Of a stretch of DNA of 64,000 nucleotides, positions 3,325 through 61,528 are shown piece after piece. The notes beneath the pieces are model-generated. The model had not been told where the DNA came from, made no database searches, and was given only the letters and a program-made list of their open reading frames with translations. Source of the stretch: an uncultured Desulfovibrionaceae bacterium (lineage in GTDB: Bacteria; Bacillota; Dethiobacteria; DTU022; UBA8154); NCBI GenBank assembly GCA_964603615.1, contig CAZRVU010000001.1, positions 1,954-65,953 of the forward strand, written 5' to 3'. The translations under genes and the position numbers were made by a program. The first letter of the stretch is position 1; each line of letters opens with the position of its first letter.

Positions 3325-3531
3325 ATGCATGTTTTAAGAGTTGACCTCCTTTTTCAGATCGCCGGAATTGGCATTTTTATCTCTGTTATCAATATTGTCC
3401 TTAAGCAGGCAGGCAAGGAGGAACAAGCCCAAATGCTGACCCTGGTAGGGGTGGTGATCGTTCTTTTGTTGGTTTTACAATTGTTGGGGGAGCTTTTCAG
3501 CAGCATCCGTGAACTTTTCTATTTATATTAA
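3325..3531 (+). CDS. spoIIIAC: Stage III sporulation protein AC
   Basis: 68-aa two-TM protein MHVLRVDLLFQIAGIGIF... with typical SpoIIIAC size and sequence. Confidence 0.85.
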   Translation: MHVLRVDLLFQIAGIGIFISVINIVLKQAGKEEQAQMLTLVGVVIVLLLVLQLLGELFSSIRELFYLY

Positions 3532-3538
3532 CTATCTT

Positions 3539-3764
3539 GATTCTACTGCATAAATTCTATTTGCAAGGCGTTCGCTGGAATCAGCATCCCTTCGACTGGC
3601 AATTTTTCGACCGGGCCCATTGAACGTCCTCTTCAAAAGGCCCTAAAAATGGCGTCCTGCCATTTTTGCTTCAAAATTGTGGCGTCTTCATGGGCTGAAT
3701 TTTACAGCTCCCGCCCCAGCAAATTTTGTTTTATGCAACAGAATGTAATTTTTGCAGTGGAATC
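3539..3764. mobile_element. MITE-like 226-bp element, copy 1 (12-bp terminal inverted repeats GATTCTACTGCA ... TGCAGTGGAATC), inserted between spoIIIAC and spoIIIAD
   Basis: Reverse complement recurs at 60208..60432 with about 12 differences including one 1-bp indel (manual alignment, ~95% identity); contains an internal palindrome AAAAATGGCGTCCTGCCATTTTT and a 42-codon ORF. Confidence 0.6.
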
Positions 3765-3782
3765 ATATTATGCCTAATTTAA

Positions 3783-4181
3783 GTGGTGTTTGCTATGGAG
3801 ATTGCTCAGGTGATGGCTTTTGGGGTTATTGCTACCATACTTATTCTCTTTATCCGTCAGAACAGGCCCGATCTGGCTCAACTGCTTTCCATCGGCGTGG
3901 GGCTAGTGATCGTCACCTATGTACTGGGTTACCTAAAAATGGTTATTGATATCATCACCGATTTGGCTTTGGAAGCCGAGATCGACACCGTTTTTTTAAG
4001 AATTCTGCTACGCGTGATTGGTGTTGCTTATTTGGCGGAATTTGGTGCCCAGGTCTGCCGGGACGCAGGAGAGGGTAATATTGCCATTAAAATTGAATTT
4101 GCCGGGAAAATTCTGATTTTAGTGATGGCTGTGCCTGTTTTAGTGGCAGTTTTGGAGGGCATTGTTAATTTTATACCTTGA
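3783..4181 (+). CDS. spoIIIAD: Stage III sporulation protein AD
   Basis: 132-aa multi-TM protein; operon order; start may be the internal MEIAQV (3795). Confidence 0.85.
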   Translation: MVFAMEIAQVMAFGVIATILILFIRQNRPDLAQLLSIGVGLVIVTYVLGYLKMVIDIITDLALEAEIDTVFLRILLRVIGVAYLAEFGAQVCRDAGEGNIAIKIEFAGKILILVMAVPVLVAVLEGIVNFIP

Positions 4182-4361
4182 ACCGGCCTTGTCAAGATCA
4201 AAGAACCAGCCTTGTTAAGATCAAAAATTGGGTTAAAAAGTATTTTATCAGTTACCTTGAAAAGGTTTTGTTTACACGATCGTTTACGGGAACTTGGCCA
4301 AACGGACACAAGCCTTATTTAAAAAGAGTTCTAGCCAAAGGCGAAGGCAAAGTGAGGTAAG

Positions 4362-17298: not shown

Positions 17299-17898
17299 TG
17301 CATGAGCGGTTTACCATGGAAACGAAAGGTAACCCCTAATTTTATTTGAAATAGATATTTAATTCGAGTATAATAATAATTAGTTAGTAGTTAATTGATT
17401 GGACATAGCGTGGCGCAGTATCCTAGTTGTCACCAGCGTTTTCGAAGCGGGTGAAAAAACCGCTTTGGGCACAACGATGAAGTTCCTGGTGTTGGCTGCC
17501 GAAGCCCAGTCGGGGGTTAATACTGGGAGTTAAGGGGGACGGGGCGATCTACAAAGGCATGTAGGCGTTGACCCTGCCCCCGTGGAGACCCAAGTGCGTG
17601 GCGTATTACCATAAGGGTAAAGGGTTAGGGCTTGGGCCAGAACCTGTGTGTGGTCAAAACTGTGCACAGCGTAGCCGGCCTTGCGCGGCTTTGGGGGAGG
17701 AAGGCTTGGTCCTTAGGAAACCAAAACCGCAAAAAAGGATAGAAAACGTTATGGAGGCATCGGGGAAAACTCCTAGGCTGTTCCCTCTACCCGGGGGAGG
17801 CTTTATGGGGATTAAAGTGTGGTCTAAGTGGTAATCCAGCCCTGTTAGTGGCAACATGGCAGAAATGTTCTGAAAAGGAAACTGCCCCCTGGTAACAG
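17299..17898. other. ~600-bp GC-rich apparently non-coding block between ispA and the next gene (possible structured RNA or leader)
   Basis: No ORF >90 codons with protein-like composition; many G-runs and local hairpins (e.g. AAGCGG-GTGAAAAAA-CCGCTT); extends to ~18141 if the downstream gene starts at MRSYLIS. Confidence 0.3.
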
Positions 17899-18594
17899 GT
17901 GGTGAACATTTGGGAAATCCTGCTGGACCTCAAGCCGCAAAGTTTACTCATAAAGTTGCCACCTATGTCCATAAACAAAAAATTATTTTTGAGAGTGCAA
18001 AGAATCTTGGGGGATAACAAAAAAAGGCAAAGACAACAGAGCAAAAGAAAGAAAACTAGACATTGGGTAATCCTGATAAGTATTTGGACTTTTTTCTTCG
18101 CTGTGACTTTAACCTGGGTAACGCGTTTTTTATTACAAAATATGCGTTCATATCTGATTTCTTTTGTTCTTTTAATCTTGATTATTGCCCTGGGTATTTT
18201 TTTTGATTTAATTGGCACGGCGGCTACTGCTGCCGAGGAGACGCCTTTTCATGCCAAGGCTGCCAAAAAAATCTATGGGGCAAAGAAGGGTATATTTCTG
18301 GTACGCCATGCCGATCTGGTGGCAAATTTTTGTAATGATGTGGTTGGAGATATCAGTGGCATTGTGAGCGGAATTATCGGGGCCATAATCGTAGTCAATC
18401 TCGTTCAAAGAAATGCGGGTTTGAATGAAATATTTTTAAGTGTTCTTTTGGCGGGGATTGTATCTGCTTTAACGGTGGGCGGCAAAGCTTTTGGTAAGTC
18501 TTTGGCGATTAACAGGCCAACGGAGCTAGTGTTGTTTGTGGCTCGTTTTTTGACGACCTTTGAGCGGATTTTTATGAAAAAAAGAAGTTCATAG
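17899..18594 (+). CDS. DUF21 (CNNM-type transmembrane domain) membrane protein without CBS/CorC domains; start uncertain (GTG 17899, or ATG 18142)
   Basis: C-terminal ~150 aa resemble the DUF21 TM domain (LIGTAATAAEETPF..., LVANFCNDVVGDISGIVSGIIGA); the N-terminal 80 aa are lysine/arginine-rich with no SD before any candidate start. Confidence 0.4.
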   Translation: MVNIWEILLDLKPQSLLIKLPPMSINKKLFLRVQRILGDNKKRQRQQSKRKKTRHWVILISIWTFFFAVTLTWVTRFLLQNMRSYLISFVLLILIIALGIFFDLIGTAATAAEETPFHAKAAKKIYGAKKGIFLVRHADLVANFCNDVVGDISGIVSGIIGAIIVVNLVQRNAGLNEIFLSVLLAGIVSALTVGGKAFGKSLAINRPTELVLFVARFLTTFERIFMKKRSS

Positions 18595-45069: not shown

Positions 45070-45120
45070 AAATAAGTTGAAGTTTAATCTCGATCAGGTG
45101 GTCGCACCTGCCGGCCTGCC

Positions 45121-45238
45121 GGTATTTGCCGGTGCAGGTGCAGGGCGCGTTCAATCGTCAGCACCCTGCCGTCAGCACCCTTCTTTCCATTTTGGGCGGC
45201 GGCGGGTATCTGCCGGTGCAGTTGCAGGGCGCGTTCAA
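45121..45238. repeat. GC-rich direct repeats: 34-bp unit GGTAT(T/C)TGCCGGTGCAG(G/T)TGCAGGGCGCGTTCAA at 45121-45154 and 45205-45238, plus 2x CGTCAGCACCC in between
   Basis: Seen directly; between the trpS stop and scpA start; the overlapping minus-strand ORF looks like an artefact. Confidence 0.5.
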
Positions 45239-45289
45239 CCTGCAGAGTGACTTTATCCTTTTAACAGGAAGATAACCGGAGGAAAAAGA

Positions 45290-57741: not shown

Positions 57742-57814
57742 AGGGTTAGGGCCGTAACCGACAAAGGAAGGATAGAGTACAATAGAAATTAATAAATATA
57801 TACTGGCCATTGTG

Positions 57815-57976
57815 ATGCAGGAACAAGTACGGGAAAAGGTGGGTGCGTATGGCGCCCCTGTTTTTTATGCTGAAAGCCAAGCAGAGCAGGATAAAATCGC
57901 CACTTATCTTGCCCGGATTACTTCCGGTGTTGTCCATGATCTGGAAAACGGGATCTTTATTATTGTCCGTCATTAA
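57815..57976 (+). CDS. Candidate 53-aa small protein downstream of the YIEGIA gene
   Basis: ORF MQEQVREKVGAYGAPVFYAESQAEQDKIATYLARITSGVVHDLENGIFIIVRH with protein-like composition; weak RBS; below the ORF-track cutoff. Confidence 0.25.
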   Translation: MQEQVREKVGAYGAPVFYAESQAEQDKIATYLARITSGVVHDLENGIFIIVRH

Positions 57977-58259
57977 ATTATTTTTTATACCCAATTTTTC
58001 ATATGGTGGTTGTAGCAAGGTGAAATGATCATTAAATTAAGCTGGTAACAGCGTTGCTGTCTTGACAGGACGCCCAGTAAAGAGGATAATGAGGAAGAAA
58101 TAATTTCTTCCTTTTTATATTAAAGGAATATTGACAGTTGTCTTATAAAATATTACTAGGTTGAAATATACAGGCTTGCGCCGGACAATAGGCAAAAGGT
58201 GTATCTTGACCCTATTTTCATCATGTTTGTTGCTGCACTGGCCGAGGGAGTGATGATCA

Positions 58260-59596: not shown

Positions 59597-60184
59597 TTGG
59601 TATTGTTGATGATAGTTTTTGCTTATCTGCTGGGATCGGTTTCTTTTGGCTACATCATTGCTAAAAAAACAAAGGGGATTGACATCAGAAAAATTGGTAG
59701 TGGCAGTACAGGTGCGACTAACACCTCCAGAGTGCTAGGATTTAATTTTTTTGCCATAGTTTTAGCTCTAGATGCTTTGAAGGGACTCCTTGTGATTCTG
59801 ATTGCTTCTTACCTGTTTACGGAAGACTGGGCCATATTGCTTAGTGGCGCAGCAGTAATCATCGGGCATAACTGGCCGGTTTTTTTTAATTTTCAGGGTG
59901 GAAGGGGTGCTGCTACAACACTGGGTGTTTTTCTGGGAATAACACCCCTGCCTACGCTGGTTGTCTTTGGTATCTTTATCTTGATCGTTCTGCTCACGCG
60001 TTATGTTTCTTTAGGTTCGATGCTGGGTGCCCTTGCCATACCTGTTGCGATTATCATTCTAGGTTATCCCTGGGAATACCTTGTTTTTGGTTTGGCGGTT
60101 TGTCTGCTGCTATTGTGGAGGCATAAACCAAATATCGAAAGGTTGTTAAAAGGGAAAGAACCCCGGTTGGGCGAAAAAACCTAA
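59597..60184 (+). CDS. plsY: Glycerol-3-phosphate acyltransferase PlsY
   Basis: Conserved G3P-binding SGSTGATN motif in a multi-TM protein. Confidence 0.85.
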   Translation: MVLLMIVFAYLLGSVSFGYIIAKKTKGIDIRKIGSGSTGATNTSRVLGFNFFAIVLALDALKGLLVILIASYLFTEDWAILLSGAAVIIGHNWPVFFNFQGGRGAATTLGVFLGITPLPTLVVFGIFILIVLLTRYVSLGSMLGALAIPVAIIILGYPWEYLVFGLAVCLLLLWRHKPNIERLLKGKEPRLGEKT

Positions 60185-60207
60185 AAATGTGACAAATTTT
60201 ATAATAT

Positions 60208-60432
60208 GATTCCACTGCAAAAATTACATTTTGCGGCATAAAACGAAATTTGCTGGGGCGGGAGCTGTAAAAATCAGCCCATGAAGACGCCACAATTTTG
60301 AAGCAAAAATGGCAGGACGCCATTTTTAGGGCCTTTTGAAGAGGACGTTCAATTGGCCGGGCGAAAAATTGTCAGTCGAAGGGATGCTGATTCCAGCGAA
60401 CGCCTTGCAAATAGGGTTTATGTAGTAGAATC
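60208..60432. mobile_element. MITE-like 225-bp element, copy 2 (inverted relative to copy 1), between plsY and gpsA
   Basis: Reverse complement of 3539..3764 with about 12 differences; same TIRs (GATTCCACTGCA ... TGTAGTAGAATC on the + strand); the internal ORF is on the minus strand here and runs on into plsY antisense. Confidence 0.6.
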
Positions 60433-60520
60433 ATTATATCTTTTACTCAAATATTTGCACGAAAGGAGGTGGGGCGGCTTTTTCCCCTGAAAGTCCGGGA
60501 ATCTCCGTCGCCTTGTTTTT

Positions 60521-61528
60521 ATGGATATTGGTCTGATTGGAGCAGGAAGTTGGGGAACAGCCCTGGCAATTCTATTAGGCCGGAAAGGTTTGCCGATCAC
60601 CCTTTGGGTCAGGAGGGCTAGCTTACTGGAGGAGATTACTAGGACGCGCCTTAATAGTATTTACCTGCCAGATGTCTACATACCGGATAATATAGTTTTA
60701 ACCAACGATTTGGAAAAAACTGTGCGCCGGAAAAATTTTATTATTATGTCTGTTCCTTCGCATGCGCTGGCTGGTTTGGTGCACGAGATCAAGGATTTTC
60801 TCGATGAACGTGCTATTATTGTTAATACGGCCAAAGGGTTGGCTGAAGGCCCGGGTATGCGCCTTTCCCAGGTCATAGACAAGCTTGTTCCACGTAACCG
60901 GGTTGCCGTTCTCTCCGGGCCCAATCATGCGGAGGAAGTAAGCCGTTTGTTGCCTACAGCTTCGGTCGTGGCCTCTACAGAACAGGCAGTAGCGGAAAAA
61001 GTGCAGGATATTTTTATGGCTCCTACTTTCCGGGTTTATACCAATCCTGATATTGTCGGAGTAGAGCTGGGTGGAGCCTTAAAAAATATTATTGCTATTG
61101 GTGCGGGTGTCTGTGACGGGTTAGATTATGGAGATAATACCAAGGCGGCTTTGCTTACCAGGGGATTGGTGGAAATTACTCGCTTAGGCTTGGCCCTGGG
61201 GGCACAAAAGGGGACTTTTAGTGGCTTAACAGGAATGGGGGATCTTTTTGTGACCTGTACCAGCCGGTATAGTCGCAACCGTTATGTAGGGATGATGCTG
61301 GGTAAAAATCAATCTTTAAAAGAAATATCTTCTACCATGAAAATGGTTGCTGAGGGAATTAGAACGACCCGCATTGCCTATGAATTGTCCCAAAGTTATG
61401 ATATAAAAATGCCTATTACCAAGGAAATATATGAATTATTATTTTTGGGAAAAGATTCCCGGGAAGCAGTCAAAAATTTAATGCAGCGGCAAAAAACACA
61501 TGAGATCGAGGAGATTGCTTTCGATTAA
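60521..61528 (+). CDS. gpsA: NAD(P)H-dependent glycerol-3-phosphate dehydrogenase
   Basis: N-terminal GAGSWGTA Rossmann motif; size. Confidence 0.9.
   Translation: MDIGLIGAGSWGTALAILLGRKGLPITLWVRRASLLEEITRTRLNSIYLPDVYIPDNIVLTNDLEKTVRRKNFIIMSVPSHALAGLVHEIKDFLDERAIIVNTAKGLAEGPGMRLSQVIDKLVPRNRVAVLSGPNHAEEVSRLLPTASVVASTEQAVAEKVQDIFMAPTFRVYTNPDIVGVELGGALKNIIAIGAGVCDGLDYGDNTKAALLTRGLVEITRLGLALGAQKGTFSGLTGMGDLFVTCTSRYSRNRYVGMMLGKNQSLKEISSTMKMVAEGIRTTRIAYELSQSYDIKMPITKEIYELLFLGKDSREAVKNLMQRQKTHEIEEIAFD

Follow-up and report, generated by a model that had tools for sequence, protein, structure and literature searches.

An uncultured Dethiobacteria bacterium probably harbours a family of palindromic mobile repeats that is small, restricted to its lineage, non-autonomous and MITE-like in kind; one full copy stands in its spoIIIA operon. 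We analysed a 64-kb stretch of its DNA (the window, to which all coordinates refer) and found the repeat unit to be ~234 nt long, non-coding and hairpin-forming, with inverted ends; copy 1 occupies 3536-3769, and a second full copy lies in inverse orientation between two other genes (Table 1). A first-pass annotation had proposed a MITE-like non-coding element with terminal inverted repeats (TIRs) inserted in the spoIIIA operon, and that proposal is upheld by empty sites in relatives, by a third copy and by the points at which short-read contigs break.

Table 1. Positions of the repeat and its parts, of neighbouring features and of the contig breaks inside the repeat; predicted breaks assume the two window copies alone
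Feature	Position	Strand	Remarks
spoIIIAC	3325..3531	+	PF06686 and synteny; stop codon 4 nt upstream of copy 1
Copy 1, full length	3536..3769	+	Between spoIIIAC and spoIIIAD; from alignment with copy 2
Left TIR, copy 1	3538..3556	+	TGATTCTACTGCATAAATT; 17/19 complementary to 3747-3765
TTTGCA direct repeats, 6 nt	3560..3565 and 3751-3756	+	Junction of the mini copy falls in TTTGCA
Central hairpin	3645..3667		AAAAATGGC-GTCCT-GCCATTTTT; symmetry centre of the palindrome
42-codon ORF	3649..3777	+	Not a gene; extends past the end of copy 1
Right TIR, copy 1	3747..3765	+	AATTTTTGCAGTGGAATCA; identical in copy 2
spoIIIAD	3795..4181	+	Ribosome-binding region AAGTGGTG (3781-3788) intact, 12 nt past copy 1
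Full-length OLE (ornate large extremophilic) RNA	17394-17978	+	418.9 bits, E = 1e-119
plsY	59597..60184	+	PF02660; upstream neighbour of copy 2
Copy 2, inverted relative to copy 1	60203..60435	-	Between plsY and gpsA; 94.3% identity
gpsA	60521..61528	+	NAD_Gly3P_dh domains; downstream neighbour of copy 2
Break left of copy 1	3565		Contigs L007, L008, L009 end (3 samples); predicted 3586
Break right of copy 1	3740		Contig L012 starts (1 sample); predicted 3669
Break left of copy 2	60265		Contigs L011, L022, L023 end (3 samples); predicted 60303
Break right of copy 2	60385		Contigs L020, L021 start (2 samples); predicted 60385
Break in third copy			Contig L033 (1 sample) starts exactly 30 nt in from an end of this copy

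The extent of the unit follows from two kinds of evidence. Similarity between the two full copies spans TGATTC (3538) to GAATCATATTAT (3771), and because contigs assembled with k = 31 break at 3565 and 3740, the boundaries of the repeat fall at ~3536 and ~3769. The element is present as first described, but its length is therefore ~234 nt rather than 226 bp. Likewise, the imperfect TIR of 12 nt reported earlier is real (11/12 positions match) but was drawn too short: the TIR runs to ~19 nt, with TGATTCTACTGCATAAATT matching the reverse complement TGATTCCACTGCAAAAATT at 17/19 positions. The left TIR forms the outer stem in both the RNA fold and the DNA fold of copy 1. The two ends are kept in copy 2 and in a 39-nt mini copy described below, so that the TIRs hold up wherever the element was seen.

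The entire unit is a degenerate palindrome centred on an A5-TGGC...GCCA-T5 hairpin, and the internal palindrome AAAAATGGCGTCCTGCCATTTTT that had been pointed out is indeed present, at 3645-3667. Measured as the alignment score of the unit against its own reverse complement, self-complementarity reached 24, compared with -6 +/- 7.7 (maximum 14) in 200 shuffles. Either strand folds into a single long imperfect rod or hairpin, with predicted RNA folding energies of -77.3 kcal/mol for the plus strand (z = -5.3) and -79.2 kcal/mol for the minus strand (z = -4.7), and as single-stranded DNA the full unit folds to -44 kcal/mol (z = -5.3).

The second copy had been placed at 60208..60432 with ~95% identity and ~12 differences. 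It exists, but as the reverse complement of copy 1 and at 60203-60435; a global alignment from TGATTC to GAATCA contains 13 differences in 229 columns (94.3% identity). Given this 229-nt match at 94%, a palindrome score above that of the shuffles and the strongly negative z of the RNA folds, neither the recurrence nor the palindrome is due to chance. The central hairpin and a 79-nt core are invariant between the two copies. Most of the differences weaken base pairs and are uncompensated, as with a G to A change in the TIR and a change of TT to CC. As an inverted pair with 94% identity, the two copies are separated by 56.4 kb, and homologous recombination between them could invert a 56-kb segment that includes the OLE RNA. 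The OLE RNA itself would fit a host among the anaerobic or extremophilic Bacillota.

Both full copies sit between an upstream stop codon and a downstream ribosome-binding region and damage neither. At copy 1, the stop codon of spoIIIAC (TAA, 3529-3531) and the start codon of spoIIIAD (ATG, 3795) are separated by a spacer of 263 nt. Pfam labels on matching contigs bear out the gene assignments, namely spoIIIAA, AB, AC, AD and AE as well as plsY, gpsA, der and spoIVA. All eight spoIIIA ORFs are intact, and across the window housekeeping and sporulation genes form one co-linear block, almost all of them on the plus strand. Near copy 2, a Shine-Dalgarno-like AAAGGAGGTG lies ~50 nt 5' of the gpsA ATG (60463-60520); the 48 nt between them are GC-rich with hairpin potential and have no counterpart in relatives, where the spacer measures 24-31 nt. 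Farther upstream, YIEGIA_cap is present at 57782-57973, though without a call on the Logan contig, and the DUF3189 gene that relatives carry between YIEGIA_cap and der is absent from 57974-58259.

The evidence for insertion comes from relatives that lack the element. Searches with SpoIIIAD and PlsY assign the window to the Dethiobacter/Dethiobacteria group of the Bacillota, in which named relatives are at most ~80% (SpoIIIAD) or ~77% (PlsY) identical; among public read sets, some Logan assemblies contain the exact PlsY. We compared both junctions with those on contigs of relatives at 77-89% protein identity. The spoIIIAC-spoIIIAD spacer measures 17-27 nt in these relatives against 263 nt here: 27 nt in the relative with an 89% identical SpoIIIAD (L013), and 17 nt in six contigs of an 83% relative (L014-L019). 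Similarly, the plsY-gpsA spacer, 336 nt here, measures 24-31 nt, with 31 nt in an 84% relative (eight contigs, several samples) and 24 nt in a 77% relative. Gene order at both junctions is otherwise conserved, as is the ribosome-binding motif AAGTGGTG before spoIIIAD in L013 and L014, and a search of ~130 kb of the relatives' DNA for fragments of the element found none. A spacer conserved at the syntenic position in relatives would have spoken for an ancestral sequence in place of a mobile insertion; the relatives' spacers, at 17-31 nt, are element-free, and thus the insertion reading stands. Judged from these comparisons, both sites are insertions, and the occupied and empty sites typical of the MITE class are found at both junctions.

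Other spacers of the spoIIIA operon also vary between lineages. The spoIIIAD-spoIIIAE spacer (4182-4361) is 180 nt long here and 7-28 nt in relatives. At its start a 23-nt direct repeat stands in tandem (AACCGGCCTTGTCAAGATCAAAG / AACCAGCCTTGTTAAGATCAAAA), and it holds a strong sigma-70-like site on the minus strand (4195..4168, TTGACA-16-TAAAAT). Its sequence is single-copy in the DNA examined, and it represents a second lineage-specific expansion in the operon. On L013 (4645-5014), the spoIIIAE-spoIIIAF spacer is ~370 nt long, compared with 46 nt in the window; within it lies a hairpin of 19 bp without mismatches (GGTGGTGAAAGGTTGTAGC..GCTACAACCTTTCACCACC), so that the spoIIIA operon of a sister lineage carries an insertion of another kind. 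Elsewhere in the window, a 44-nt direct repeat (45118-45161 / 45202-45245; 86% identity, 84-nt period) occupies a 220-nt spacer flanked by two plus-strand ORFs and has no Rfam hit.

A third copy was found outside the window. It is 39 nt long and lies at positions 15-53 of contig L007 (SRR8925753), ~2 kb upstream of window position 1 and upstream of a pilin-like (N_methyl) gene. Its sequence, ATGATTCCATTGCAAATAGAGTTTAGGCAGTAGAATCAT, consists of the two element ends joined, with the ~190-nt interior missing; in the orientation of copy 1 it reads ...CTATTTGCA followed directly by ATGGAATCAT. From the TTTGCA at its junction, the mini copy would be a deletion derivative that arose by recombination between the TTTGCA repeats of a full element; long palindromes readily give such derivatives. 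The mini copy carries a single G/T difference between SRR8925753 and SRR20950113 (contigs L007 and L033), and alone it folds as a clean hairpin (-10.6 kcal/mol, z = -3.4). Two full copies and the mini copy are therefore seen directly at three loci within ~66 kb.

The contig breaks point to still more copies. Logan assemblies are built with k = 31, and each 31-mer is unique within an accession (PMC12424806), so that a contig must stop where the next 31-mer is common to another context. All short-read contigs that reach a copy stop inside that copy, and contigs from as many as three independent samples break at the same bases. Of the four breaks for which the two window copies alone make a prediction, the one at 60385 agrees exactly, which validates the k = 31 break model. 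The breaks at 3565, 3740 and 60265 are unexplained by the two window copies and thus indicate copies beyond those seen directly. Such copies would share 3536-3566, 3739-3769 and 60236-60266, respectively; strain variants could contribute to these breaks, and strain variation could partly mimic them. The dispersed multiple copies that characterize the MITE class thus comprise three loci seen directly and, from the contig breaks, presumably more. Two other accounts of the breaks were rejected. Full-length and collapsed alleles at one locus, proposed as the cause of the break at 3565, predict a contig start at 3751, but the start observed is at 3740, so population heterogeneity alone is not sufficient to cause that break. 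A node model that lets a break arise from 30 shared bases conflicts with contigs L012 and L022, both of which run through a 30-nt stretch common to copies 1 and 2; a model with 31 shared bases fits all contig breaks and matches the Logan methods. The first-pass reading of a mobile repeat, for which a total of only two copies would have been awkward, is thus strengthened by the third copy and by the breaks that imply others.

These data also bear on a simpler account, in which the element is a two-copy segmental duplication, that is, an inverted repeat pair 56 kb apart which may drive inversion and which belongs to no dispersed family. The window does hold only two full copies, and the public collections that we scanned yielded no other member: in the species-representative genomes of GTDB, a 21-mer from the invariant core gave no family member (six hits lay in unrelated phyla with no match beyond the 21-mer and were rejected as chance); in JGI metagenomes, an interior 20-mer and a left-end pattern fitting all three copies gave 0 hits; and a scan of viral contigs gave 0 hits as well. 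Against this account stand the third copy, which occupies a locus of its own, and the contig breaks, three of which (out of four) are impossible from two copies; in addition, the ends are sharp and bounded by TIRs, and the copies sit precisely in operon spacers. We regard the account as most improbable. Plasmid and phage collections, searched by blastn in distant mode, likewise contained no match to the element. As far as these data reach, the family of mobile repeats that we favour is confined to the close lineage of this organism.

The element contains no gene. A 42-codon ORF had been reported, and the frame is present at 3649-3777, but it is spurious: copy 2 lacks its stop codon, the same frame staying open there to 89 codons, and three of the four codon changes between the copies alter the amino acid. 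The 42-aa product had no relative and no shared words among 5.8 billion protein clusters and no match in Pfam. An exhaustive phmmer search of 1.84 billion representatives returned a single chance hit, a repetitive 400-aa protein with the short motif FYSSRPS in common. We therefore rejected the coding hypothesis on the grounds of missing homologs, an unconserved stop codon and mostly amino-acid-changing differences. With ~234 nt and ORFs of at most 42 aa that lack homologs, the element is short and non-coding, as MITEs are, which measure less than ~500 bp and encode neither a transposase nor another protein.

We further considered whether the element is a functional structured RNA or a cis-regulatory module, such as an sRNA, an RNase processing site or an internal terminator or insulator, which copying would have brought to two loci and which would be retained because it affects the expression of spoIIIA and gpsA-spoIVA. 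Such a module would accord with the very stable fold of either strand, with the terminator-like A5-stem-T5 hairpin within the invariant 79-nt core, and with the location of both copies in operons linked to sporulation or envelope genes. A comparison with Rfam, which the first-pass annotation had suggested, yielded no family: at gathering thresholds the only hit in the whole window is the OLE RNA, which lies elsewhere, and at E <= 10 the element gives noise hits of 12-17 bits. In its predicted fold the central hairpin looks like a weak bidirectional terminator. By itself it reaches -10.5 kcal/mol on the plus strand and -10.0 kcal/mol on the minus strand, with mostly A-U pairs and four G-C pairs; its T-run pairs with its A-run, so that there is no free U-tract, and the GC-rich stem and free U-tract of an intrinsic (rho-independent) terminator are not found. 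Terminator scans of both copies and scans around them for sigma-70 consensus promoters called nothing inside the element. Candidate outward promoters at the element ends (TTGCAA-15 nt-TAGAAT, and TATTAT with a poor -35) were unconvincing by eye and were set aside. Against an RNA module we further count the absence of the element from both junctions in all relatives sampled, and the opposite orientation of the copies to transcription, which would place complementary RNAs in the two operon transcripts. Because both strands fold alike, the RNAs would be complementary and pairing is mostly weakened, with no compensating change, where the copies differ, a DNA palindrome fits better than a selected RNA. 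An RNA module thus seems to us distinctly unlikely.

The target site offers a candidate signature of transposition. The dinucleotide AT flanks both full copies (3534-3535 / 3770-3771 and 60201-60202 / 60436-60437) and is lacking at the mini copy, which makes a 2-bp AT target-site duplication a candidate at two of three copies; the AT...AT flanks may just as well prolong the inverted repeat. Three sites are available, and the relatives are too diverged to supply the pre-insertion sequence. Target-site duplications of 3-9 bp, sought by eye at all three copies with several choices of boundary, gave none that fits. A search of the window for the TIR with up to three mismatches returned only the four element termini and no insertion sequence (IS) with matching ends.

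The scarcity of target-site evidence raises the question of whether mobilisation could proceed through a single-stranded hairpin instead. An HUH/Y1 transposase would recognise the folded single-stranded hairpin rather than double-stranded ends and would make no target duplication, so that the element would be REP/RAYT-like or a palindrome derived from IS200/IS605. Like REP/BIME (RAYT) and IS200/IS605 palindromes, the element forms hairpins and has no obvious target duplication, which none of its three sites shows convincingly. The clean hairpin of the 39-nt mini copy resembles a REP unit, and the stable single-stranded DNA fold of the full unit would suit such an enzyme. In addition, GTAG/GTGG occurs in the arms, and TTGAT or ATGAT stands at the left junctions; these motifs are reminiscent of the REP head motif and the ISDra2 target and serve here as a lead only. 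A WTGAT left junction with no clear duplication is compatible with the IS200/IS605 type, albeit at few sites. The anatomy of the unit is otherwise at odds with both types. REP units are GC-rich imperfect palindromes of 20-40 nt with GTAG at the head, and genomes hold tens to hundreds of them, whereas the element is AT-rich, has true inverted ends, measures 234 nt and carries GTAG inside the stem, so that only the 39-nt form is REP-like; and IS200/IS605 elements have two distinct subterminal hairpins and no TIR, insert 3' of a fixed short motif and duplicate no target, whereas the two ends here are inverted repeats of each other. Moreover, genes for TnpA, RAYT or TnpB were found neither in the 64-kb window nor in ~9.5 kb of same-organism contigs beyond it (L007, L020). 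On balance, hairpin-based mobilisation is unlikely.

For a MITE-like element, we propose the following course of events. A transposase encoded elsewhere in the genome would recognise the inverted ends and move the element in trans, and insertion may duplicate 2 bp (AT) at the target. At spoIIIAC/AD and at plsY/gpsA the element has come to lie, once in each orientation, among the few bases that can be spared between a stop codon and the ribosome-binding site that follows, and at least one further copy would have collapsed through the TTTGCA deletion to the 39-nt form that retains only the ends. Since the neighbouring genes all lie on the plus strand and none of the eight spoIIIA genes is disrupted, co-transcription of the element is probable; it would be carried as a long hairpin on the spoIIIA and der-plsY-gpsA transcripts, and the operon mRNA would probably bear a stable hairpin with a predicted energy of ~-77 kcal/mol. 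By analogy with ERIC and Correia elements, for which such effects are documented (PMC3184786), the hairpin would be tolerated, with at most a modest modulation of mRNA processing, stability or read-through. A more eventful version, in which a duplication-free, hairpin-mobilised element colonises the spacers between stop codon and RBS in operons and its RNA hairpin (~-77 kcal/mol) has been co-opted so as to split spoIIIA, strikes us as highly unlikely. If true, it would give this lineage a processing or insulating site and separately tuned sub-transcripts for the spoIIIA feeding tube.

The first-pass annotation had called a mobile or structured element in a sporulation operon unexpected. This is less so than it seemed, in that Correia, ERIC and RUP elements behave likewise (PMC3184786); the spoIIIA position is a tidy example of a harmless landing site and is unsurprising in itself. 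It does offer a natural test of the amount of structured RNA that may stand between cistrons of an essential sporulation operon without harm, and a group of alkaliphilic spore-formers on which little work exists thereby gains a family of mobile repeats. There is a practical consequence as well: in at least four public samples, short-read assemblies of this Dethiobacteria lineage break apart at exactly these sites because of the repeat, and knowledge of it helps to finish genomes and to avoid mis-joins. Among the papers searched, none joins Dethiobacter with miniature inverted-repeat elements and none mentions SRR8925753. We conclude that the family has not been described before, while the kind of element, MITE-like, is ordinary and calls for no new category.

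Comparison with known systems places the element among the short palindromic repeats of bacteria, although it has no sequence relation to Correia, ERIC, RUP or any Rfam family. The ends bear some resemblance to the inverted repeat of the IS6 family (GGTTCTGTTGCAAAGTTT), which matches GATTCYACTGCAWAAATT at 12/18 positions, the TGCAAA core included. IS6 insertion typically gives an 8-bp duplication, whereas none is found here (3531-3538, ACTATCTT, versus 3765-3772, ATATTATG), and the element had no blastn match (E <= 0.01) in a plasmid collection. Correia elements of Neisseria (CREE/NEMIS) are likewise TIR-bounded palindromes between genes, 100-160 nt long and co-transcribed, and their family also includes internally deleted short forms. 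Correia elements duplicate TA on insertion. They differ from the element in sequence and have 26-bp TIRs, functional promoters and IHF sites (PMC3184786). Like ERIC of Enterobacteriaceae and RUP of Streptococcus pneumoniae, which are ~107-127 nt long, the element is an imperfect intergenic palindrome; it is about twice as long, unrelated in sequence, from a different phylum and without a partner IS found. A transposase of the IS630 type probably moves RUP in trans. ERIC, when transcribed, alters mRNA stability (PMC3184786). In relation to the bacterial MITE class as defined by Delihas 2011 (PMC3184786), the target-site duplication here is only a candidate AT, and a cognate IS was not found in the window. 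In other respects the likeness is close: the element is small and lacks a transposase, has TIRs, forms a long hairpin, lies between genes in both orientations, has empty sites in relatives, and occupies operon spacers where co-transcription would occur. Four defining MITE features are thus present in it, namely a small non-coding unit, TIRs, dispersed copies, and occupied sites opposite empty ones.
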